From contig JBHLKM010000008.1 in the NCBI GenBank assembly GCA_048886685.1, positions 107,897 to 171,896 on the forward strand: 64,000 bases of DNA, written 5' to 3'. This document shows, piece after piece, positions 35,416 through 59,150 of the stretch. The notes beneath the pieces were generated by a model. The model did not search any database, was not told the DNA's origin, and was given only the letters and a program-made list of their open reading frames with translations. The stretch comes from Candidatus Hodarchaeota archaeon (lineage in GTDB: Archaea > Asgardarchaeota > Lokiarchaeia > Sigyniarchaeales > SOKP01). A program made the translations under genes and the position numbers. Numbering within the stretch: the first letter of the stretch is position 1; each line of letters starts with the position of its first letter.

Positions 35416-35787
35416 TTGGTTGAATTTATTAAAGGAAAATTATTAGCGGCGCTATTATTAGCTCTTGTCGGTTCTGTATTATTAGTAATTGGTGGTATTC
35501 TTGGAATTTCTCTACCTGAAATGGAACCTATTTTGGAAGAAGAACCTATCCTCTTTATGACATTCATTTTACCCATAATTTTAGGCCTTATTGGTATTGC
35601 TGGTGCTGCTTTAACGATAATTGAAAAAAATGATTTGAACTATATTATAATAATCGTTGGATTAATTGCGGTTATAGGAATATTCATACCTCTTATAGAT
35701 GAATACCCATTGGTGATGACCCTCCTTTATATTGATCCATTTCTGATTTTAATCGGGGGAATCCTCAGTGTAGTAATTAATGAATAA
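35416..35787 (+). CDS. Small 4-TM membrane protein
   Basis: Four hydrophobic segments; GAGG SD before TTG. Confidence 0.7.
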   Translation: MVEFIKGKLLAALLLALVGSVLLVIGGILGISLPEMEPILEEEPILFMTFILPIILGLIGIAGAALTIIEKNDLNYIIIIVGLIAVIGIFIPLIDEYPLVMTLLYIDPFLILIGGILSVVINE

Positions 35788-35920
35788 TACGCCTAGCCAC
35801 ATTTTTTTATCTAATTTTTTAGAAAATATAAAAGAAATTATGAAAAACAAGATATAACAAGAGAAATAAGAATAAAATTTTATTCCTTTTAATCACAATT
35901 TGAGATTTCTAATCAAGGAT

Positions 35921-37270
35921 CTATAGCCGAATATAGCGTTCTCTTTCCCAATCACTCACAACAACTCTATAAGCATCAAATTCCTCTAATTTAGCATAGT
36001 AGTAATTCTTAAATGCTGTTTCACCAAATATTTCTTTCATTGATTCAGATTCTTTAAACTCCAATAACGCTTCATGTAAACTACCGGGTAGAGATACAAT
36101 ACCTTCCTTTTCCATTTCTTTACTGGAAAGATGGTAAACATTTCTATCTGTTGGTTCAGATATTTCAATGTCATCTGATAATACACCTTCCAAACCTGTA
36201 GTTAAAAGCACGGCAAACTGAAGATATGGATTTCCAGACGGATCTGGGCATCGAATTTCACATCGAGCGGCATTAGGTCTACCGTGAAAATCAGGTACCC
36301 TAATCAGAGGTGACCTGTTACGAAATCCCCAAGCAAGATATACAGGGGCCTCATAACCTGGGACGAGTCTTTTATATGAATTTGGCCAGCTACTTAGAAC
36401 AGCACACATGGCTCTTGAATGTTTTAATTGACCTGCTATCCATTTCTTCATTGTTAGTGATATATTATCTTGATCGTTTTCATCATAAAATGCATTATTA
36501 CCATTTTTCCATAATGACTGATGTACATGCATACCTGAACCATTAATTCCATGAAAGGGTTTTGCCATGAAAGTTCCAGTAAGATTGTGGTTTGCTGCAA
36601 CCGTTTTGACTATTGTTTTAATAGTTATTGTATTGTCAGCGGTATTCACAGCCTCATCATAACGAAAATCAATCTCATGTTGACCATAAGCAACTTCATG
36701 ATGAATACACTCAACATTAATTCCCATTGCATCACTATATTCTGCAATTGTATATCTTATCATCTCATTTTTATCATATGGATCATAATCGAAATATCCT
36801 CTCATATCTGATGGTTTAAATTCTGCTTTAGTATCTGGAGTTAGTATAAAAAATTCCATTTCAGGTGCACAAAAATATTTATAACCATGTTCTTTTGCCT
36901 TATTTGTAGCACGCTGTAAAATATAACGAGGATCCCCCTCATATCGTTCACCATCAGGTTTATAAATATCACAAATAACTCGAGCAACCTTGTTTTCTTT
37001 TCGCCATGGTAAGAGGTAAAAAGTGCTCGGATCAGGAAGTGCAACTTTATCAGATTCCTCAATAGCTCCATATCCTGTTATCGAACTTCCATCAAAATTT
37101 TCTCCTACTTCAAAAATATCTTCAATTCTCTTAGAATTAATCTCAAATGATTTAATAATTCCATGAATATCTGTAAATTGAAGATAGATAAATTTAATCC
37201 CTTCCTCCTTAATCCTCTCTATCACAGCATCACACATTTCTTTCCTTTTTGGATTATCTTTTTCAATCAT
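35921..37270 (-). CDS. glnA: Glutamine synthetase type I
   Basis: LQFTDIHG, FDGSSI, HHEVA.GQHEI, NGSGMHVHQS, YKRLVPGYEAP, NRSPLIRVP, EIRCPDP. Confidence 0.97.
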   Translation of the reverse strand: MIEKDNPKRKEMCDAVIERIKEEGIKFIYLQFTDIHGIIKSFEINSKRIEDIFEVGENFDGSSITGYGAIEESDKVALPDPSTFYLLPWRKENKVARVICDIYKPDGERYEGDPRYILQRATNKAKEHGYKYFCAPEMEFFILTPDTKAEFKPSDMRGYFDYDPYDKNEMIRYTIAEYSDAMGINVECIHHEVAYGQHEIDFRYDEAVNTADNTITIKTIVKTVAANHNLTGTFMAKPFHGINGSGMHVHQSLWKNGNNAFYDENDQDNISLTMKKWIAGQLKHSRAMCAVLSSWPNSYKRLVPGYEAPVYLAWGFRNRSPLIRVPDFHGRPNAARCEIRCPDPSGNPYLQFAVLLTTGLEGVLSDDIEISEPTDRNVYHLSSKEMEKEGIVSLPGSLHEALLEFKESESMKEIFGETAFKNYYYAKLEEFDAYRVVVSDWERERYIRL

Positions 37271-37296
37271 TTTTTATAACTCTTTTAGTTGTTATT

Positions 37297-37668
37297 TTAT
37301 TCATAAATTAGAGATGAATCTTTTTTACTCCTCATAAACGTGGAAAAATCTTTTATGGTTAATGCTTTTCGAATGTTTTCTGAATTCAAATTTAACTTAT
37401 TATTAGGTTCACAATTCCAGTCGTAGGATGCTCTTTCGTGAATTGCAAAATTATTGGGTTCTGGAGTTAAATCTTTAATTAGTTCACAAGTTTTACTTGT
37501 TTTAAACGCAATTGTATCAATACCTAAAAAAATTGAACAATTCCATTTATTATTGTCTCGACCTCCAAAATCTGTTAATCCACTAGATATAGAATAATCT
37601 TCACACTCCTGACAGATTTTACTATCATAACGGTACTTTTTTCCACAAACAGGACATTTTATTTCCAT
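37297..37668 (-). CDS. Zn-ribbon protein ending LIYE (paralog A), first gene of the glnA operon
   Basis: CPVCGKKYRYDSKICQECE..KWNC; 26-nt gap to glnA. Confidence 0.75.
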   Translation of the reverse strand: MEIKCPVCGKKYRYDSKICQECEDYSISSGLTDFGGRDNNKWNCSIFLGIDTIAFKTSKTCELIKDLTPEPNNFAIHERASYDWNCEPNNKLNLNSENIRKALTIKDFSTFMRSKKDSSLIYE

Positions 37669-37764
37669 TTTTTCATATTCTCTCTCATTTAATTTTTGAT
37701 TTAATTAATTTTTCAAAAAGAAATATACGTATATTGCCAAATTAAATCAATTTTTATTTTTATA

Positions 37765-37780
37765 TGGGATTTAAACCCCA
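37765..37780 (-). promoter_or_regulatory. GGG-N8-CCCA box upstream of the glnA operon
   Basis: TGGGGTTTAAATCCCA on the minus strand, 30 nt downstream of TATA-like TTTATATATA (37811-37820). Confidence 0.7.
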
Positions 37781-38017
37781 TTTTTTATCCTTTAACAATA
37801 AATGTGATCGTATATATAAAAATCTTTTGATCAATTATCTCAAATATTCATTTCTTGATAAAAATGTTAACAATATATTTAATAATCATTGAATAAAGTG
37901 ACCGATTGATTATTTAGAAATTTTTTGTCGTTATAGAGAATGATCATTTGAATATTTTTTATTGCTTTATTTAATCAAATGCATACTTTTATAATTATTT
38001 CATAACTATCTATTAAT

Positions 38018-38521
38018 ATGGTTGTTAATTCTAAGATAGTTAACTTATCTGATTTGGATAAGAAGATCCTAACTAAACTAGACGAAGATGGAAGATTATC
38101 ATTTCGTCATCTTGCTAAAGACTTAGAAGTAGGTTCACCTGTAACCATTAAAAATCATGTTGAGAATTTAGAAGAAAAGGGTGTTATTAAAAATTATGGA
38201 GTACAGATTGATTATGAAAAACTAGGGTATGATATTATCGCTCTTATTGAATTAACGGTTTCAAAAGGTAAAATGCTTGAAGTTGAAAATAAATTAGCCC
38301 AGAACCCAAACATTTTTGCTGTGTATGATATTACAGGAACATATGATGCTCTTATTCTTGCGAGATTTAAAACTAGGGCGGAGCTAAGCGAAATGATAAA
38401 AGAAGAAATACATACTTCTCCCTATGTTGAACGAACTAATACTCATATAGTTTTAAATATTATTAAAGAGGAATTTTCTTTTAAAAATTTGATAGAAAAA
38501 GAAGGAATAGAACTTCAATAG
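38018..38521 (+). CDS. Lrp/AsnC family transcriptional regulator
   Basis: LSDLDKKIL..DGRLS HTH, LEEKGVIK, LGYDI, ITGTYD. Confidence 0.93.
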   Translation: MVVNSKIVNLSDLDKKILTKLDEDGRLSFRHLAKDLEVGSPVTIKNHVENLEEKGVIKNYGVQIDYEKLGYDIIALIELTVSKGKMLEVENKLAQNPNIFAVYDITGTYDALILARFKTRAELSEMIKEEIHTSPYVERTNTHIVLNIIKEEFSFKNLIEKEGIELQ

Positions 38522-38540
38522 CAATCTAAAGCGAGGATAC

Positions 38541-38696
38541 TGAAAACGTTCAACAAAAATCATTAATTATTAATACTAGGATTGAATCCAAAGATAAATG
38601 TTCACTGAAATAAATCTTTATGTTTAAAATGTTCACAAAATCGAATATTCTGTAGACTATTTACTATTTTTAATATGAAAAAATATAAAATGTTCA
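38541..38696 (+). promoter_or_regulatory. Array of AAAYGTTCA repeats, candidate Lrp binding sites
   Basis: GTTCA cores at 38548, 38600, 38631, 38692. Confidence 0.45.
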
Positions 38697-38880
38697 ATAA
38701 CCTTACACAAAACTTAAATAGAAGAAGATTTTCACTGAATAATTTTCATAAGAAACGTATAATATTAATAGATCTTTCATTTATATTTAACTATTCTTGT
38801 CGAAAGGTTTAGAAAAATTATGAAAAGACATAATTTCTTTCAATAAATTATAAATAGAAGTTCTCCTTTAGTAATAAATA

Positions 38881-38896
38881 AGGGAACTTGTTCCCA
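38881..38896 (+). promoter_or_regulatory. GGG-N8-CCCA box upstream of the wHTH/Zn-ribbon/hdrBC/glt operon
   Basis: AGGGAACTTGTTCCCA, about 25 nt after TATA-like TTATAAATA (38848-38856). Confidence 0.7.
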
Positions 38897-38965
38897 CAAA
38901 TAAAAAAATAAGACATAAAAGAGGTAAAAAAAAATAAAAAAATTTTTTGAAAGGAGGTTTTAAAA

Positions 38966-39181
38966 ATAACAGTTCAAGAGTATTTTCGAACATGGGAAGA
39001 AATTTGCTTGGAAAAACTAAAAGAAATAGGAAGATGCTCAGCAGCCGAATGGGCTAGGGCAATGGGATATGGAGATAATCGTAATGGTGTGACAACAGTA
39101 ATAAAACGAATAAAAAAAACTATGCCTGAAAGGTTAACGGTTTATTATAACACCAGGCCACGATTATATGAAGCTGTATAA
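38966..39181 (+). CDS. Small winged-HTH protein, 71 aa, ATA start; absent from the ORF track
   Basis: (M)TVQEYFRTWEEICLEKLKEIGRCSAAEWARAMGYGDNRNGVTTVIKRIKKTMPERLTVYYNTRPRLYEAV*; GGAGGT SD 7 nt upstream; in-frame TGA at 38948. Confidence 0.7.
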   Translation: MTVQEYFRTWEEICLEKLKEIGRCSAAEWARAMGYGDNRNGVTTVIKRIKKTMPERLTVYYNTRPRLYEAV

Positions 39182-39211
39182 ACAGAATATTAAAGTAGAG
39201 TGTGAATTAAG

Positions 39212-39724
39212 ATGCCATTAAAATGCCAAATTTGTGGAAAAGAATATTTATATGATGGAAAGATATGCCATAGCTGCGAAGAGAGTGCCATTACAAGTGG
39301 TTTGACATCTCGAGAGGGATATGAACATAAGTGGAGATGTGATAATTTTATTGAACCGAATGGTTTAGTATTTGGAAGCAATTTAAATAAGAGAAGAGAG
39401 TTTACATTAAAATTAATTGAATGTCCTGAATGTGGAGAAAAGTATTCCTATGGCAGAAAAATCTGTCATGTCTGTGAAGGTAATTTATTGCCGTTTGGAA
39501 CGTTATTCGATTCAGATCGCAAGGCACGTAGGTGGAATTGTGAAACAGTATTAGCTTGTATAGAGATATTGTCATCTAATTTAGATACTACTGAGACCAT
39601 TGTAAAAGATGTACCCCATTTAGAAAAACTCGAGAAAACTGATTATAAATGGAATCAAGTTTCGACTATAAAATATAATAATGAACAAATAGATGGGAAG
39701 AACAAGCTTCTGATCTATGAATAA
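39212..39724 (+). CDS. Double Zn-ribbon protein ending LIYE (paralog B)
   Basis: Two CxxCGxxYxYxxKICxxCE..WxC repeats. Confidence 0.75.
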   Translation: MPLKCQICGKEYLYDGKICHSCEESAITSGLTSREGYEHKWRCDNFIEPNGLVFGSNLNKRREFTLKLIECPECGEKYSYGRKICHVCEGNLLPFGTLFDSDRKARRWNCETVLACIEILSSNLDTTETIVKDVPHLEKLEKTDYKWNQVSTIKYNNEQIDGKNKLLIYE

Positions 39725-39920
39725 ATATCATTTTTTAAATTCAAGATTATTAAAAAAAAGTAAAAATAATGAATATAACTCAGGTTAAAATTATGAGCAT
39801 TGTAGTAGTAAAGAAGGTAGCTTATACATCTAATTAAAATTAAGTTATTTCTTTATGGTTTTACTTAATATTTTCATTTTATTTTAAAGTAACTTAATGT
39901 AATTAAAGAGGTTAAAAAAA

Positions 39921-41261
39921 ATTCAACAAGAGATAATGTTATTTCCAGGATGCGTGATAGTAAATAGATTTCCCTTTATTGAAGTCTCAATAAGGAAAGT
40001 ATTTGATCATCTGGGAATATCTTTTACTGAAAATCCCAAATTTTCTTGTTGTCCAGATCCAAATGGCATTAAAAATTCTAATAAGTTATTATATTCTATT
40101 ACCGCAGCTCGCAATATTGCTCTTGCTGAGTTAGAAAATAAAGCAATATTAACACCCTGTAACGGATGCTTTAGCACATTAAAAAAAGTCAAAAGTGAAA
40201 TCGATACAGATCACCATTTCAAAAGGAAAATCAATAGTTATTTAGATAAGATTGATATCAAGGTTGAGGGAAAGACTGAAGTATTCCATATGGTTGATTT
40301 CATTTTCAAATTTAAGAGAGACACTATCAGGGATAATTTAATATATCCACTGACGGGATTAAGAGTTGCTGTGCATTATGGATGTCATTTTCTTAGACCA
40401 AGCAATAAAGTTCAGATAGATGATCCCTTGGAACCAGCAATCTTTGATGACTTAATTAAGGATTTAGGTGCTGAAAGTATAGATTATAATCTTAAAATGG
40501 ATTGTTGTGGGGGAATTCTCGAGAGAGCTGGAAATTCAAGTTTATCATTAGAAATTATTAAAGCAAAATTAGAAAGCATGAAAGAAAAAGATGTGGATTG
40601 CATTGTTGTTTGCTGTCCTCAATGTTATATGCAATTTGATCATTTACAACAGGAAATGAAAAAATTTGACTTTAATTATGACATTCCTGTGCTATATTAT
40701 TCAGAATTATTATCTCTCGCATTAGGGCTAGATCTCCGAGATATTATTAAAAAGCATCATAGAACCCAAGTTGATTCACTTTTTGAAAAGATCGATCTCA
40801 TCCAAGAGAAAAATAAGGAGATAAGAAAATTCTTCGATCTTACCTTTTTACTTAAATGCTATTCATGTGGGGCATGCGATGACGATTGTATTATCTCAAA
40901 GATGACCGAATTTAGTCCGAAGGCACTCATAGGCAATATTATCAAAGGAAAAATTGATCAGGTAATCTCAGATCCTTCTATTTGGATGTGTCTCGACTGT
41001 TATTTGTGTTATGAGCTTTGTCCGATGGGAATTGGCCTAATTGAAATTTTTACTATATTACGAAATTTAGCAAAAGAAAGAGGTTTTATCACTAAAGGAT
41101 TTGAAAAGGAATTTAACGCTTTTTACAAAAAAGGAATAGTAGGAATGCCTTCGAAGGCAGCACGATCTAGAGTTGGATTACCATCACATATACCGGATGT
41201 TGGAGATTTGAAAGATTTGTTTAATGTAGTAGAAAGAGAGAATACAAAACTAGAGGAATAA
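39921..41261 (+). CDS. Heterodisulfide reductase HdrB-HdrC fusion (probable ATT start; ORF track start ATG 39936)
   Basis: Two CCG domains (FPGC..SCCPDP..PCNGC; HYGCH..CCGG..CCPQC) followed by CYSCGACDDDC and CLDCYLCYELCP. Confidence 0.88.
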   Translation: MQQEIMLFPGCVIVNRFPFIEVSIRKVFDHLGISFTENPKFSCCPDPNGIKNSNKLLYSITAARNIALAELENKAILTPCNGCFSTLKKVKSEIDTDHHFKRKINSYLDKIDIKVEGKTEVFHMVDFIFKFKRDTIRDNLIYPLTGLRVAVHYGCHFLRPSNKVQIDDPLEPAIFDDLIKDLGAESIDYNLKMDCCGGILERAGNSSLSLEIIKAKLESMKEKDVDCIVVCCPQCYMQFDHLQQEMKKFDFNYDIPVLYYSELLSLALGLDLRDIIKKHHRTQVDSLFEKIDLIQEKNKEIRKFFDLTFLLKCYSCGACDDDCIISKMTEFSPKALIGNIIKGKIDQVISDPSIWMCLDCYLCYELCPMGIGLIEIFTILRNLAKERGFITKGFEKEFNAFYKKGIVGMPSKAARSRVGLPSHIPDVGDLKDLFNVVERENTKLEE

Positions 41262-41264
41262 TTT

Positions 41265-42455
41265 ATGAGATGGGAAAATTATACCTCATTACCAGAGCAG
41301 TATAGGAATCAGAGAGTATTCGATGGATGTGGGATTTCTGGATTTATAAATGTTGATGGGAGTAGGGTTAGAGGGGATAAAGTCATTGATATGCTATGTA
41401 TTTTAAAGGAGAGGGAAAATGGATTAGGAGCTGGGTTTGCGGCTTATGGTATTTATCCAAAATATAAAAATTATTATGCATTTCATTTTCTCTTTGATAA
41501 TATTTCTGCTAAAACAAAAGTTTTAGATTATTTAGATAATAAAGGTACAATTATCGCATCTGAACCAATTCCAACTAATACTCCTTTAAATGTTGATAAT
41601 CCACCGATTATTTGGAGAGCTTTCTTCGATCCTAATAAAAGTGGAAGTCTGGAACCAGACGAAAAAGTCGTACAGATTGTAATGGAAATAAATGCGAACA
41701 TAGAAAATGCTTTTGTTATGTCTTCCGGTAAAAACATGGGTGTGTTTAAAGGAAATGGGTGGTCACATGAAATTGCCAATTTTTACAAAATTTCAGATTA
41801 TGACGCTTTTATGTGGTTAGCGCATTCTAGGTTTCCTACCAATACTCCTGGATGGTGGGGAGGTGCTCACCCCTTTAATTTATTAAATTGTTCAGTTGTT
41901 CATAATGGAGAAATAACATCCTATGGAACAAATAGAAGGTACTTAGACTCGTTTGGATATAAATGCACTCTCTTCACCGACACAGAAGTCATTGCATATT
42001 TATTTGATTTATTATGTCGTAAGCATCAAATACCCTTATCTATCGCCACAATTGCTCTAGCACCACCATTATTTGGTGAGATCGAAAAGTTAAGCAGGAG
42101 AGAGCAACTAGTGCTTAAAAGTATAAGAGCAACTTATCGGAGCGCGATGTTAAATGGACCATTTTCAATTGTGGTTGGTTTTTCAAATCCAATTCCTACA
42201 ATGATCGGATTATCTGATAGAAAAAAATTAAGACCCCTTGTAATTGGAATTTCAGATGATGAAAACACTATATATATGAGTAGTGAGGAAGCATCTTTCA
42301 AACGATTGACGTTATCTAATAGAAATTTCTCAATGAAAGAAATATGGCATCCCAAAAGTGGGTCAGCAACGATTGTCATGCTTGGTAAAGGATTGATAAC
42401 AAATGGCCTTGAAACACCAATAAAAAATTTAAAATTAACAATGATGGAGGCTTAA
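41265..42455 (+). CDS. Glutamate synthase amidotransferase subunit (archaeal GltB1, Ntn type)
   Basis: DGCG (Ntn Cys), ERENGLGAG, HSRFPTNT, AHPF, HNGEI, TDTEV. Confidence 0.9.
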   Translation: MRWENYTSLPEQYRNQRVFDGCGISGFINVDGSRVRGDKVIDMLCILKERENGLGAGFAAYGIYPKYKNYYAFHFLFDNISAKTKVLDYLDNKGTIIASEPIPTNTPLNVDNPPIIWRAFFDPNKSGSLEPDEKVVQIVMEINANIENAFVMSSGKNMGVFKGNGWSHEIANFYKISDYDAFMWLAHSRFPTNTPGWWGGAHPFNLLNCSVVHNGEITSYGTNRRYLDSFGYKCTLFTDTEVIAYLFDLLCRKHQIPLSIATIALAPPLFGEIEKLSRREQLVLKSIRATYRSAMLNGPFSIVVGFSNPIPTMIGLSDRKKLRPLVIGISDDENTIYMSSEEASFKRLTLSNRNFSMKEIWHPKSGSATIVMLGKGLITNGLETPIKNLKLTMMEA

Positions 42456-42458
42456 ATA

Positions 42459-43979
42459 ATGGCAATCGCGCATGAAATTATTAATTATTTTAAAGTTGAT
42501 ATAAATAGAGAAGATTGTAAAAAATGTAAACGATGCATTAATCACTGTTCATTTGGAGTTTTGTCTTTTAATGGGGAACAAATAATTGCTGAGGATCATA
42601 AATGTGTTGCCTGTCAACGGTGTGCAGTTATGTGTCCTGGAAATGCGATAAGAATTGTTCAAAATGAGTCATTTTTGCCACCTCATGGACATTATACAAG
42701 AAAAATTCGAAATATAATCTGGGCTCAATCTGGGAATGGAGGTGTTCTACTATCCGCAACTGGTAATGATAGACCAATCCGTTCAATATTCGATGATTTA
42801 CTTCTAGATGCGTGCCAAGTTACTAATCCCTCTATCGATCCCTTAAGAGAAACAATTGAAACTAAGATAATTTTTGGGAGAAAACCAAAGAAATTAACTT
42901 TCATCTCTCATCCGGATGATTTAGAAAAAATTTCTTTAAAAACCAACTTGATGCCGAATTTTGAGATTGATATGCCAATCATGGTAGGTCATATGTCTTT
43001 GGGTTCAATTAGTTATAATGCATGTCAGGCAATTTACCAAGCAGCAACTGAATTAAATATTGTAGCAGGATCAGGTGAAGGGGGTTTACATCCAGATTTC
43101 TATGAATATGCTCCGAATATAATTACAGAAGTTGCTTCTGGAAGATTTGGAGTGGATATTAATTATCTTAGCAATGCTGCGGCGTTAGAAATAAAGATCG
43201 GGCAAGGAGCTAAACCAGGGCATGGTGGTCACTTACCAGGTGAAAAAGTTAGCAGTTTAATCTCGCAAACCCGAATGATTCCAAAAGGAAGCGATGCGTT
43301 ATCACCTTATCCCCATCATGATATTTATTCAATAGAAGATTTAGCTCAATTGATAGCTGCCTTAAAAGAAGCAACAAGATATAAAGTTCCTGTAGGAGTA
43401 AAAATAGCGGCAGTTCATAATTCTGCTCCGATTGCAGTTGGAATTGTTAGAGGAAGTGCTGATTTTCTTACTTTAGACGGATTCCGTGGTGGAACTGGTG
43501 CTGCTCCAAGAATTATTCGGGATCATGCAGGAATCCCCATTGAATTAGCCATAGCTGCCGTTGATGAAAGATTAAGACAAGAAAATTTACGTGAAGAAGT
43601 AACTTTAATAGCTGGCGGTTCAATTCGATATTCTGCTGATTTAATTAAGGCTATTGCTCTAGGCGCTGATGTAGCAATGTGTTGTATGCCAGTTTTAATT
43701 TCAATGGGATGTAGAGTTTGTCAGCAATGCTTCAGGGGACTATGTCCCTGGGGAATTGCAACTCAACAAGAATATTTGGTAAAACGATTAGATGTTGATG
43801 TTGCGAAAAATAGAATAATTAATTTATTTCATTCTTGGAATGAAGAATTAAAGGAAGTTTTAGGAGCGATGGGAATTGATTCTATAGAATCGCTCCGCTC
43901 AAACCGAGACCGATTAAGATATATAGGTCCAAATCCGCGTATTGCGGACATTTTAGGAGTAAAACATGCAGGTGAATAA
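42459..43979 (+). CDS. Glutamate synthase FMN subunit with N-terminal 2x[4Fe-4S] (archaeal GltB2)
   Basis: VASGRFG, KIGQGAKPGHGGHLP, HHDIYSIEDL, GGTGAAP, CRVCQQC..CPWGIATQ. Confidence 0.92.
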   Translation: MAIAHEIINYFKVDINREDCKKCKRCINHCSFGVLSFNGEQIIAEDHKCVACQRCAVMCPGNAIRIVQNESFLPPHGHYTRKIRNIIWAQSGNGGVLLSATGNDRPIRSIFDDLLLDACQVTNPSIDPLRETIETKIIFGRKPKKLTFISHPDDLEKISLKTNLMPNFEIDMPIMVGHMSLGSISYNACQAIYQAATELNIVAGSGEGGLHPDFYEYAPNIITEVASGRFGVDINYLSNAAALEIKIGQGAKPGHGGHLPGEKVSSLISQTRMIPKGSDALSPYPHHDIYSIEDLAQLIAALKEATRYKVPVGVKIAAVHNSAPIAVGIVRGSADFLTLDGFRGGTGAAPRIIRDHAGIPIELAIAAVDERLRQENLREEVTLIAGGSIRYSADLIKAIALGADVAMCCMPVLISMGCRVCQQCFRGLCPWGIATQQEYLVKRLDVDVAKNRIINLFHSWNEELKEVLGAMGIDSIESLRSNRDRLRYIGPNPRIADILGVKHAGE

Positions 43980-44817
43980 AATTACTATAGTTAATGATAT
44001 TGAAACAAAAGATTTTGGAATTGGAATTGAAGAACCATTAGAGATAGATGCTGCTCCAAATGGAGATCCTCTCGATTATAGAGAATTAAATTCCATGATT
44101 CATAATGCTGTTAATAATAATTGTAAGAAAATTGTGTTAAACAATGTTTGTGGGCAAAGATTTATAGGTGCTGCTTTACAAGGAGATGTAGAAATAAGTA
44201 TTAATGGGGTTCCTGGTAATGATTTAGGGATTTTTATGGATGGTCCAAGAATTAGTGTTTTTGGGAATTGTGAGGACCAATCTGGTAATACCATGAATCA
44301 AGGAACAATGATAATTGATGGGGATGGAGGAGATGTTATAGGCTTATCTTCAAGAGGCGGGAAGATTTATATCAAAGGTGATGTTGGATATAGAGTTGGT
44401 ATTCACATGAAAGAATATGAAGACCATTTTCCAATATTAATAGTCGGTGGCACAGCTAAAGACTTTTTAGGTGAATATATGGCTGGTGGTAAAATTATTG
44501 TACTTGGTTTAAAAATTTCCTCAAATAGTAGTATTTCTGAGAGTCCACAGTCAATTTGTGGTACGGAATTAGGAACAGGGATTCATAGGGGTGCTATTTA
44601 TCTTCGAACAGAAGAAAATGTAGAGGATAGGTTAGGTGTTGGAGCAAAAGTTTTCAATCTTTCAAAAGATGAACAAGAAGAAATTGATACTTACGTAGAA
44701 GATTTCTGTAAAACATTTAATGTTCCCCTAAGTGCTGTTGATAATAAACCTTTTAAAGTTATTAAACCAATTTCAAAAAGACCTTTTGGTGGAAATTATT
44801 GTAGCCAATTAATCTAA
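43966..44817 (+). CDS. Glutamate synthase GXGXG subunit (archaeal GltB3)
   Basis: GQRFIG, GVPGNDLG, GYRVGIHMK, DFLGEYMAGG; overlaps gltB2 by 14 nt. Confidence 0.9.
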   Translation: MQVNKITIVNDIETKDFGIGIEEPLEIDAAPNGDPLDYRELNSMIHNAVNNNCKKIVLNNVCGQRFIGAALQGDVEISINGVPGNDLGIFMDGPRISVFGNCEDQSGNTMNQGTMIIDGDGGDVIGLSSRGGKIYIKGDVGYRVGIHMKEYEDHFPILIVGGTAKDFLGEYMAGGKIIVLGLKISSNSSISESPQSICGTELGTGIHRGAIYLRTEENVEDRLGVGAKVFNLSKDEQEEIDTYVEDFCKTFNVPLSAVDNKPFKVIKPISKRPFGGNYCSQLI

Positions 44818-45040: not shown

Positions 45041-45056
45041 TGGGAATACAAACCCA
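45041..45056 (+). promoter_or_regulatory. GGG-N8-CCCA box upstream of the second FMN subunit
   Basis: TGGGAATACAAACCCA, 25 nt after TATA-like TTTATTAATA (45006-45015). Confidence 0.65.
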
Positions 45057-45092
45057 CTATTTTTTTGAATACATTTGAAAAGTAGATTATTT

Positions 45093-46742
45093 ATGACAAA
45101 ATTTTCAATGGATACTCATCAATCAAGCATGATAGGGTCTAGAACCAGAGTTGAGGATTCTTGTGAATCTGGTTTGTGCCCAATTTGTGTAGCAGATTGC
45201 CCTGTTTTCTGCGAAGTTTCAAAATCTGCTTTGCGCGGTCGCGAAGTGTTATATCCACGTAGAGAATTTTTTGGTAATTCTACAGCTGGTTCACCAAAAG
45301 ATTTTGGGTTCTCTTATAGTGACTTTCAAATTCAATTTGAATGTCGAGGAGCTCAGGGAATTGAAGAAGATGAAGATAAAGTAATATTTCCTAATGTTAA
45401 TATTAAAACTAAGTGGGGAAATATTGAACAAAAAAATCCATTTGTAATTGCTGGTTTAGGAAGCACTTACGTTGCAAAACGTAACTGGGATGGTTTAGCA
45501 ATAGGAGCTGCATTATCAGGAGTAAGTACTACTGTAGGAGAGAATGTAGTTGGAATGGATCCTTATGCTAAATTCGCAAACCATGCCGTATATCCTAAAG
45601 TAGTTGATACACAGGATATGAAATATCGGGTTGAAAAATACAGAGAATTTTGGGATGGGAAGCATGGAGATATTATTGTACAAAAAAATGTAGAGGATAC
45701 AAGATTAGGTGTTTTTGATTATGTTATGTCTAATTTAGAAGTAAACTCACTTGAAATAAAATTTGGTCAAGGTGCAAAAGCAATTGGAGGCGAAGTCAGG
45801 TTAGAATCATTGGAGCGTGCCCAATTACTGCAGGAAAGAGGGTACCTTGTCTTTCCTGATCCTTCAGATCCAGTTATTATTGAACAGTGGAAAGAAGGAT
45901 TAATTCCAGACTTTGAAAGACATAGTCGGGTAGGACTATCTTCTACTGAGGATGTTTTAGAAGAAATTGATCAAGTACGCTCAAGCGGCGCAAAAAATAT
46001 TTTCATAAAAACTGGAGCATACAGACCAGCAGCAACAGCTTGGATAATAAGATTAGGTATTGAAGGAAAAGTAGATGGAATGACTTTTGATGGTGCTGGT
46101 GGAGGTACTGGTATGAGTCCAGTAAGTATGATGAATGAAGGATCAATTCCAACAGCCTATTTAGAAGCACTAGTAGTTGGATGTCTTGATATGATTAAAA
46201 AGAAAAATCCGAATGTATCTATACCCTCTATTGCAATAGCAGGTGGTATTGCTAATGAAACACAGATTTTTAAAGCACTTGCTATGGGTGCTCCTTATGT
46301 AAATTGCATTGCGATGGCAAGAGCCCCAATTACCGCAGCTATGAAAGCAAAATTCATTGGAGAGGTTATTAATAAAAAGGAAGCCACACCTGCAATGCTT
46401 CGCAATTTGGGTTTCTATAAGGACAAAGATCCTAAAAGTTTGACATTAAGTGAAGCTTTTGTTGAGTATGATAATTTGAATAGAATTTATAACGGAAATC
46501 GTATTCCTCCTTCGGCGATTGGAGTTTACACTTATTTTACTAGCAAATTAGGTATAGGACTCCAACAACTATTAGCTGGAGTTCGAAAATTTAAGGCGAA
46601 TTTAATATGTCGAAATGATATTGCTTATATTTCTCAAAGAGCTAAAGAAGTATGTAAAAAATGGAATCTTGGAATTAAATCTCAAGAATCACTCGATTAT
46701 GAGTTAGTAAAAAATGAGATTTATTCTGGGAATTATGATTAA
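45093..46742 (+). CDS. FMN-binding glutamate synthase family protein (stand-alone GltB2-like) with N-terminal Cys cluster
   Basis: CESGLCPICVADCPVFCE, KFGQGAKAIGGE, DGAGGGTGMSP, AGG, KALAMGA; ATG 45093 preferred over TTG 45075. Confidence 0.85.
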   Translation: MTKFSMDTHQSSMIGSRTRVEDSCESGLCPICVADCPVFCEVSKSALRGREVLYPRREFFGNSTAGSPKDFGFSYSDFQIQFECRGAQGIEEDEDKVIFPNVNIKTKWGNIEQKNPFVIAGLGSTYVAKRNWDGLAIGAALSGVSTTVGENVVGMDPYAKFANHAVYPKVVDTQDMKYRVEKYREFWDGKHGDIIVQKNVEDTRLGVFDYVMSNLEVNSLEIKFGQGAKAIGGEVRLESLERAQLLQERGYLVFPDPSDPVIIEQWKEGLIPDFERHSRVGLSSTEDVLEEIDQVRSSGAKNIFIKTGAYRPAATAWIIRLGIEGKVDGMTFDGAGGGTGMSPVSMMNEGSIPTAYLEALVVGCLDMIKKKNPNVSIPSIAIAGGIANETQIFKALAMGAPYVNCIAMARAPITAAMKAKFIGEVINKKEATPAMLRNLGFYKDKDPKSLTLSEAFVEYDNLNRIYNGNRIPPSAIGVYTYFTSKLGIGLQQLLAGVRKFKANLICRNDIAYISQRAKEVCKKWNLGIKSQESLDYELVKNEIYSGNYD

Positions 46743-50533: not shown

Positions 50534-50549
50534 GGGGAAAAAATTCCCA
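50534..50549 (+). promoter_or_regulatory. GGG-N8-CCCA box upstream of the nfn-like operon
   Basis: GGGGAAAAAATTCCCA. Confidence 0.65.
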
Positions 50550-50665
50550 TAAACAGAGTGATTTACGATATATTTTTTTTAGGTCGAATTATTCTTCAAT
50601 TAGGAGGAACAAAATTATTTTCGAATTGAATCTTCAAATAAATCTTGAATATAATAAGAATCGCA

Positions 50666-58946: not shown

Positions 58947-59150
58947 TTATGTTGATCTAAATAACTTACTCTCTTCGAGATTATTCTCTTCTTTACAATG
59001 AGGACAAATCCATGTTTCATCATTTTTCTTTGTAGAATTTATGCAATCATGGCAAATAGCCACATCGCATATACAATAGTAAGTATCTTCTATTGTACTT
59101 TCACAGCTTTTACCACATATAAAACATTCAGGGGGATGGTGGTCTGACAT
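58947..59150 (-). CDS. Stand-alone C4C4 RING-like zinc finger protein
   Basis: CFIC..CIC-x4-CHDC..CPHC. Confidence 0.7.
   Translation of the reverse strand: MSDHHPPECFICGKSCESTIEDTYYCICDVAICHDCINSTKKNDETWICPHCKEENNLEESKLFRST

Follow-up and report, generated by a model that had tools for sequence, protein, structure and literature searches.

Zinc-ribbon proteins ending in glutamate as candidate co-regulators of nitrogen-assimilation genes in Asgard archaea

Nitrogen control in archaea has been worked out chiefly for PII/GlnK, NrpR, 2-oxoglutarate and a handful of small proteins from methanogens and haloarchaea, and, to our knowledge, nothing is known about it in the Asgard archaea. Several described systems resemble in part the locus that is reported here. 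Brz of Halobacterium salinarum is a small CPxCG zinc-finger protein that controls the transcription of bop, the gene that immediately follows its own on the same strand (PMC2253796). In Bacillus subtilis, the MerR-type regulators TnrA and GlnR bind glutamine synthetase (GS) with their C-terminal tails (PMC4335299), and in haloarchaea, Lrp is paired with glnA, which it activates (PMC8229911). We analysed a window of 64,000 nucleotides (nt), i.e., the whole stretch from positions 107,897 to 171,896 of contig JBHLKM010000008.1 of Candidatus Hodarchaeota archaeon (assembly GCA_048886685.1), to which all coordinates refer unless another contig or locus is named, and focused on two genes for zinc-ribbon proteins, ZnR1 (37297..37668, minus strand, 123 amino acids (aa)) and ZnR2 (39212..39724, plus strand, 170 aa). 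Both belong to a previously undescribed and very narrowly distributed family from a few uncultured Asgard genera. We tentatively propose that the ZnR proteins are lineage-specific co-regulators of a nitrogen circuit of winged helix-turn-helix (wHTH) and Lrp proteins, and that their C-terminal tail docks on a partner common to all of the paralogs. One family of Loki-type Asgard archaea, mostly devoid of PII, carries this putative circuit.

The ZnR proteins resemble Brz in being small proteins of the CPxCG type (CPVCG in ZnR1, CPECG in the second repeat of ZnR2) that are encoded upstream in the same orientation and have no recognisable DNA-binding domain of their own. However, beyond the Cys pattern no sequence relationship is detectable between them, the 44-aa module with its W-N-C motif, the long disordered linker and the invariant [YF]-Glu end are undescribed for Brz, and the genes linked to the ZnR proteins are nitrogen genes. 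Moreover, the transcriptional role of the zinc motif was demonstrated for Brz (PMC2253796), whereas for the ZnR proteins we infer regulation. With TnrA and GlnR, they would share nitrogen control through the short C-terminal peptide of a small regulator, the gene of which lies next to glnA (as in glnRA), and, should the ZnR tail dock on GS, the two systems could follow the same principle. In the Bacillus proteins, the winged helix and the tail are on one chain, whereas here the wHTH (Lrp or sORF71, a 71-aa winged-helix protein) and the tail are on separate chains. The TnrA/GlnR tail folds into a helix of ~15 residues, whereas the conserved part of the ZnR tail comprises 4-7 residues that end in Glu and is not predicted to be helical by AlphaFold2 (AF2). 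There is no homology between the two, and the MerR-type winged helix is absent from ZnR1 and ZnR2. As in haloarchaea (PMC8229911), an Lrp/AsnC gene is divergent or adjacent to glnA, a layout that is identical in the ZnR-less relatives; the difference is that here a zinc-ribbon gene lies between the shared promoter region and glnA and that there is a second wHTH/ZnR pair. The family itself has no described relative, and the proposed function has precedents in a small zinc-finger co-regulator and in the tail-mediated readout of nitrogen control.

The genome of the window and most of its genus have no PII, Amt or NrpR and carry instead a compact, self-contained set of parts: a palindromic operator candidate, the 71-aa winged helix, Lrp and the Glu-tailed zinc-ribbon proteins around the genes for GS, glutamate synthase (GOGAT) and glutamate dehydrogenase (GDH). 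If our proposal is correct, the nitrogen circuit would have evolved independently and would use a short C-terminal docking motif of a new kind. Its parts are all small enough for direct biochemical reconstitution, and its generality is limited by the confinement of the family to so few genera.

The ZnR family and its C-terminal tail

The open reading frame (ORF) listing bore out the repeats, motifs and ends that the preliminary description of the locus had given for the two proteins. ZnR1 has one CxxCGxxYxYxxKICxxCE unit followed by KWNC in an N-terminal 44-aa zinc-ribbon module (37531-37662, minus strand), then a YDWN motif (as YDWNC), a linker and the tail SSLIYE, in which LIYE spans 37300-37311. 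ZnR2 has two units (HKWRC and RRWNC) in two modules (39218-39346 and 39416-39547, plus strand), a YKWN motif and the tail KLLIYE (LIYE at 39710-39721), and SGLT is present in both proteins, which are homologous (pairwise BLASTP: repeat 1, 2e-15; repeat 2, 2e-12). The common tail is not explained by chance: in the 4.4-Mb genome, with its ~4181 non-overlapping ORFs, the pattern [LIVMFY][LIVMFKRY][YF]E is found at the end of these two alone; the background of any YE or FE end is 21 of the 4181. Orthologs of ZnR1 (54-85% identity) keep C5, C8, C19, C22, W42-N43-C44, Y82, W84-N85, L120 and E123, and those of ZnR2 (45-80% identity) end in LLIYE, FLKFE or FLRFE. An AF2 model of ZnR1 (37 sequences) was confident for residues 1-30 only, a head of zinc knuckles with one helix at residues 20-28, and had a pLDDT below 50 elsewhere. 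This fits a protein that is predicted to be disordered beyond residue 30, with short motifs along the chain (W42-N43-C44, E70-P71, Y82-x-W84-N85 and the tail).

The earlier suggestion that the family had gone unrecognised was supported by the database searches. No specific Pfam or NCBIfam model matched ZnR1 or ZnR2, and the generic zinc-ribbon model DZR_2 (PF18912, threshold 27 bits), which is silent on function, scored 27.7 with ZnR2 and 17 with ZnR1. In the same scans, no HTH family matched either protein, and a search of the ESM Atlas with ZnR1 returned no usable feature match, all of the structural rows being at TM<0.5. A profile of the module (alignment A3, 27 sequences, 44 aa) that was searched against 1.84 billion cluster representatives at E<=0.001 found only 97 clusters, ~91 of which were credible. 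These family members are 46-197 aa long, and the module is N-terminal in nearly all of them. Full-length searches retrieved 15 relatives of ZnR1 and 28 of ZnR2 from metagenome bins of the Promethearchaeota type.

The conservation of the tail, which had first been noticed in two genes, extends far beyond them, since 56 of the 91 representatives end in [YF]-E with a tail of the L-[IVLM]-[YF]-E type, which is strictly C-terminal in all 56. Its logo consists of N at position -7, L at -4, I, V, L or M at -3 (48/56; the ZnR2 clades that end in LKFE or LRFE have K or R there), Y (in 42 tails) or F (in 14) at -2 and E (56/56) at -1. Free-standing tailed members are built of a 44-aa head with a CCCC or CCHC ligand set, a long variable linker with W-N-C motifs, which is probably disordered, and the Glu tail; between head and tail, the linkers of the family cannot be aligned. 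The zinc ligands are invariant as Cys or His: some members have Tyr, Phe or Ile instead of the third Cys and a His beside it, which results in the CCHC set. Short fragments and members of class F, which is described below, make up many of the 35 tail-less representatives. The idea that the tail subtype (IYE versus KFE or RFE) is set by the downstream gene was rejected, as no clean rule emerged.

Within the order, the module was found in 29 of 34 genomes of the genus of the window (g1), in 31 of 35 genomes of a second genus (g14) and in four of five genomes of a third one, and it was absent from three other genera of their family (16 genomes). The absence of PII, AmtB and NrpR genes from the cluster, as noted previously, also holds for the whole assembly, the completeness of which is estimated at 100%: no match to PII (PF00543), Amt (PF00909) or the NrpR domain (PF01995) was found, while the controls responded. 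Across the order, the occurrence of PII is patchy, with 5/34 genomes in g1 and 0/35 in g14, which are ZnR genera, and 3/4 in g12 and 4/7 in g16, which are ZnR-less. Genus g13 has neither PII nor ZnR, and g17 has both; in the PII-bearing genomes of g1, the PII and ZnR genes share an island. The absence of PII is, therefore, only a partial mirror of the presence of ZnR, with g13 and g17 breaking the pattern and few independent events behind it, and the anticorrelation is suggestive but phylogenetically weak.

Gene neighbourhoods, the paired winged-helix gene and the candidate operator

The positions reported for the two genes were confirmed, with ZnR1 26 nt before glnA (35921..37270, minus strand) and ZnR2 211 nt before the hdrBC-glt genes on the opposite strand. 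In a survey of about 60 fetched loci, the neighbours of the ZnR genes were GS, GOGAT-type genes, Lrp, sORF71, pepF and guaA. A tight link to nitrogen-assimilation genes was seen in two genera, and neither homologs detached from nitrogen genes nor a loss of tail conservation came to light. The members fall into three classes. Class 1 (ZnR1-type) has one module and the tail. Of its 18 loci, 17 have a GS gene immediately 3' of the ZnR1-type gene in the same orientation, separated from it by 26-160 nt; two of these loci (L044:13500-14936 and L047:6457-7899) carry a different type I paralog as the GS (479-481 aa, 35% identity). In the window, there is no T-run in the 26 nt between the ZnR1 stop and the glnA start, and because of the short gap and the missing T-run, the two genes are probably transcribed together.

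Class 2 (ZnR2-type) has one or two modules and the tail, and its genes are preceded by sORF71 in all of the 17 loci. In 12 of these, GOGAT-type genes follow: glt2like, which encodes a GltB2-related protein, in eight related loci, immediately 3' of the ZnR2-type gene with gaps of 3-95 nt, hdrBC-gltB in three and gltB1 in one. In the other five, the sORF71-ZnR pair is convergent with pepF-guaA, which is the arrangement of the window minus the glt genes; pepF-guaA was therefore rejected as a third independent neighbourhood, and the pair is kept in genomes that have no GOGAT-like neighbour. A second sORF71-ZnR pair in the genome of the window is cut by the end of contig C46. Class F has the module without the tail. 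Seven genomes of the genus encode it as part of a 197-aa ZnR::Lrp fusion with a complete Lrp/AsnC protein (HTH_24 5e-17 and a RAM domain), and this fusion forms a cluster of its own. The second genus and the genome of the window have it as a separate protein, in the latter (contig C2:296350-296604) as an 84-aa remnant without the Lrp part. A comparison of the class F loci (L053, L055-L060, L064, L068, L071 and contig C2) showed that they always lie beside a response regulator, a histidine kinase, a second regulator and a GDH paralog.

Two genes between the ZnR genes had not been mentioned in the preliminary description, i.e., the gene for an Lrp/AsnC-family regulator (38018..38521, plus strand) and sORF71 (38966..39181, plus strand), which is the first gene of the sORF71-ZnR2 pair. 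sORF71 has an ATA start 7 nt past a GGAGGT Shine-Dalgarno sequence and is conserved in 18 other loci at 51-90% identity; the start codon is ATA in five of them and ATG in the rest, with ATG standing at that codon in the other clade. No Pfam or NCBIfam model matched sORF71. Its AF2 model (19 sequences; pLDDT 85, pTM 0.69) has three helices and a beta hairpin, and the top Foldseek matches were MarR, ArsR, PadR and Z-alpha winged helices at a TM of 0.6-0.7. The first canonical start codon (TTG, 39008) lies 3' of the point at which helix 1 of the model begins; sORF71 must therefore use the ATA or a near-cognate start, which may be a built-in device for low translation. The phyletic pattern of sORF71 is like that of ZnR (g1 28/34, g14 34/35, none in g12, g13 and g16), and ~40 of its 53 best matches have a ZnR module within 340 bp downstream.

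In 18 of 19 loci, sORF71 is preceded by a GGGA-N6-TCCC palindrome at a distance of 74-96 nt from the start of the gene; this palindrome is usually flanked by T/A and lies ~25-30 nt past a TATA-like box, and its arms are fixed while its centre is free. In the window, this operator candidate is GGGAACTTGTTCCC (38882..38895), ~28 nt past the TATA-like box and 84 nt before the sORF71 start. The palindrome GGGATTTAAACCCC (37766..37779) lies in the promoter region of ZnR1-glnA, 98 nt before the ZnR1 start, and a GGGA-N5/6-TCCC element was present in six of nine orthologous spacers before ZnR1. A further palindrome, GGGAATACAAACCC (45042..45055), lies in front of glt2like, the second gene of the flavin mononucleotide (FMN) type, and a strict GGGA-N6-TCCC site (50535-50548) precedes the nfn-like operon, which starts at 50645. 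The window contains nine GGG-N8-CCC sites against 3.05 expected, a number that was reached in none of 100 shuffles. Genome-wide, there are 19 strict GGGA-N6-TCCC sites against about seven expected. Four strict sites are intergenic: they lie before the two sORF71 genes, before the nfn-like operon and, on contig C10 (86952-86965), before an operon for an iorB/iorA-like 2-oxoacid:ferredoxin oxidoreductase. Because of the sites before the latter two operons, the candidate regulon may extend to electron supply and amino-acid catabolism. The palindrome was absent from all eight glt2like upstream regions that were taken from sORF71-less genomes, and the shared distribution of the operator candidate, sORF71 and ZnR indicates that the three travel together.

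The Lrp/AsnC gene of the window, which encodes a wHTH and a RAM domain (Pfam PF01037 7.5e-15, HTH_24) and for which the best NCBIfam model is the haloarchaeal Lrp (NF041396), is divergent to ZnR1-glnA and syntenic at nearly all of the examined loci. Both the ZnR-less genera and two ZnR1-less species from the genus of the window have the Lrp ortholog immediately divergent to glnA, and ZnR1 therefore has the appearance of an insertion into a pair of Lrp and glnA that is older. The spacer between Lrp and ZnR1 (37805-37945) contains three TGATC(A/G) boxes (at 37805, 37828 and 37941) in blocks that are conserved across the orthologous spacers, and similar ATGATCA boxes were found in the Lrp-glnA spacer of a ZnR-less genus (L084). 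Judging from these sequences, the boxes are candidate Lrp sites that are older than the ZnR insertion.

Possible partners of the tail

The preliminary description had suggested a family of regulators of nitrogen enzymes with a docking tail. Its family, its link to nitrogen genes and its tail stood up to the analysis, but the evidence points to a shared partner or a transcription factor rather than to each neighbouring enzyme. In the mechanism that we tentatively favour, sORF71 would bind the palindrome and Lrp would act at the glnA spacer, and together they would set the transcription of the regulon. The ZnR proteins would be made from the operons under their control and modulate these DNA-binding proteins, with the tail as a short docking peptide for a partner that is common to the paralogs, most likely the wHTH/Lrp regulators, and the zinc head and linker carrying the signal or the specificity. 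A common partner is favoured because an identical tail is found on paralogs that are encoded beside unrelated enzymes, and because the sORF71-ZnR pair persists without the glt genes while the distribution of glt2like is different and wider. The fixed pairing of ZnR2-type genes with a winged-helix gene argues for a link to transcription factors, and the loss of the tail in the paralog that is fused to Lrp suggests that the wHTH/Lrp proteins are the partner.

Several observations weigh against this proposal. Three genomes have sORF71 but no detectable ZnR, which implies that ZnR is dispensable for sORF71, and the existence of free class F modules with neither the tail nor the Lrp part weakens the argument that the fusion replaces the tail. 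ZnR1-type genes stand beside GS even when it is a different paralog, as would be expected of a direct GS partner, and docking on a transcription factor leaves the invariant terminal Glu near Glu/Gln enzymes unexplained. Additionally, the palindrome may possibly act as an RNA hairpin; its arms never vary across the loci, so base-pair covariation is uninformative on this point.

The best-surviving alternative to a shared wHTH/Lrp partner, which we nevertheless consider unlikely, is that the ZnR proteins regulate enzymes directly, each binding the adjacent one (ZnR1 GS and ZnR2 an enzyme of the GOGAT type). The free terminal Glu and the neighbouring aromatic residue would enter or cap a Glu/Gln site as a substrate mimic, and the state of the enzyme may pass to Lrp or sORF71, as with the TnrA/GlnR tails on Bacillus GS. 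That regulator tails fold on GS is established (PMC4335299), and small-protein regulators of archaeal and cyanobacterial GS are known. Direct docking would also account for the gene order, with ZnR1-type genes before GS in 17/18 loci, including the two with the 35%-identity paralog, and a GOGAT-type gene 3' of the ZnR2-type gene in 12/17. Moreover, the neighbours GS, GltB and the GDH paralog all bind glutamate while the terminal Glu never changes, and a mostly disordered protein with short conserved motifs is what would be expected for folding on binding. However, the same tail occurs on paralogs beside enzymes of unrelated fold, and the sORF71-ZnR pairs persist where no downstream glt gene is present. 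As judged by its phyletic profile, glt2like did not match as a partner of ZnR2, as it is widespread without ZnR and occurs in only about half of the ZnR genomes. Furthermore, no residue pattern in GS separates the ZnR1-containing from the ZnR1-less genomes: the seven alignment columns that differ all follow phylogeny and reveal no docking patch, and the GS of the two ZnR1-less species of the same genus resembles that of the ZnR1-containing genomes. Direct docking is also opposed by established enzymology: GS and GDH recognise a free amino group, which a Glu in a peptide bond does not have.

A further reading, which we regard as improbable, takes the terminal Glu as a chemical handle, i.e., a protein-bound glutamate that is offered to the Glu/Gln sites of GS and GOGAT-type enzymes, either as a plug that would report or block the state of the enzyme or as a carrier of the LysW or Pup kind with a gamma-carboxyl that would be amidated and de-amidated; if true, the GS-GOGAT cycle of PII-less Asgard archaea would have a branch that is tethered to a protein. 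In the carrier version, for which the probability is lower still, the gamma-carboxyl of the terminal Glu would be activated or amidated by the adjacent enzyme of the GS fold, and amidotransferase or GOGAT-type enzymes would then use it, giving a protein-tethered Glu/Gln. Pup is largely disordered, ends in Glu and is encoded next to a carboxylate-amine ligase of the GS fold, and ZnR1 can be likened to it. LysW ends in EDWGE, whereas the ZnR proteins end in [YF]-E. The outline of the ZnR proteins is like that of LysW/ArgW, as they are small, carry a zinc ribbon at the N-terminus, end in a strictly conserved Glu and are encoded among genes of glutamate-family enzymes, and in LysW the terminal Glu is the attachment point (PMC12998189). 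Nonetheless, no LysW model was among the Pfam (E<=0.1) or NCBIfam (E<=0.01) matches of the ZnR proteins, their isoelectric points of 6.1-6.6 are not strongly acidic, and no ATP-grasp gene, including a ligase of the LysX type, turned up in the loci, although no dedicated search was made for it. The neighbours of the ZnR genes listed above differ from the LysX/ArgX ligase and the LysZ/Y/J/K enzymes with which LysW/ArgW is encoded. The neighbouring GS is an ordinary, highly conserved type I enzyme, and the ZnR genes are missing from close relatives with the same enzymes. The pairing of the ZnR proteins with transcription factors, i.e., the Lrp fusion and the wHTH pair, would be left unexplained.

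The suggestion of the preliminary description that LIYE is an HbYX motif fits poorly and is highly improbable. In this reading, the ZnR proteins would dock on the alpha ring of the 20S proteasome, where they would serve as adaptors or open the gate, and would couple nitrogen enzymes to proteolysis. Although LIYE formally agrees with the hydrophobic-Tyr-X definition at the extreme C-terminus, as in PAN, Cdc48 and PbaB (PMC12352868), and is strictly C-terminal in all of the tailed members, the last residue of HbYX tolerates almost anything (PMC12352868), yet it is Glu in 56/56 tails, Tyr is replaced by Phe in 14 of the 56, whole ZnR2 clades end in L-K-F-E or L-R-F-E with a charged Lys or Arg at the Hb position, the Cdc48- or PAN-size AAA+ proteins of the same genome end in LYR, FYK and LYS, not in Glu, and no proteasome gene was found in the roughly 60 loci examined.

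Enzyme genes of the locus and minor observations

The product of glnA is a type I GS (Pfam Gln-synt_C 5.6e-122; TIGR00653 506 bits). A T6 run directly follows the ZnR2 stop codon, and 3' of ZnR2, an HdrBC-like gene (39936-41261, plus strand) is followed by gltB1, gltB2 and gltB3, the whole set spanning 39936..44817. As assigned by Pfam, the three latter genes encode the amidotransferase, FMN and GXGXG parts of a split glutamate synthase. The HdrBC-gltB gene order is the same in L044 and L047, and in one of these two genomes, two PII genes lie a few kb from the second type I GS. An Rfam scan of positions 35500-40200 of the window found nothing credible.

The FMN protein of 555 aa that is encoded by glt2like (45075..46742, plus strand; Pfam PF01645 4e-15) is 72-91% identical across the order, yet no NCBIfam model matches it. 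Its orthologs begin with MTKFS, and the true start is probably an ATG six codons past the listed TTG. In several orthologs, there are single in-frame stops (TAA, TAG or TGA) in genes that are otherwise intact. Finally, a loose pattern search detected a Cys-rich protein of 67 aa (58947-59150, minus strand) with ~nine Cys and CxxC pairs, which is unrelated to the ZnR family and is conserved in a related genome (L053:485-688).

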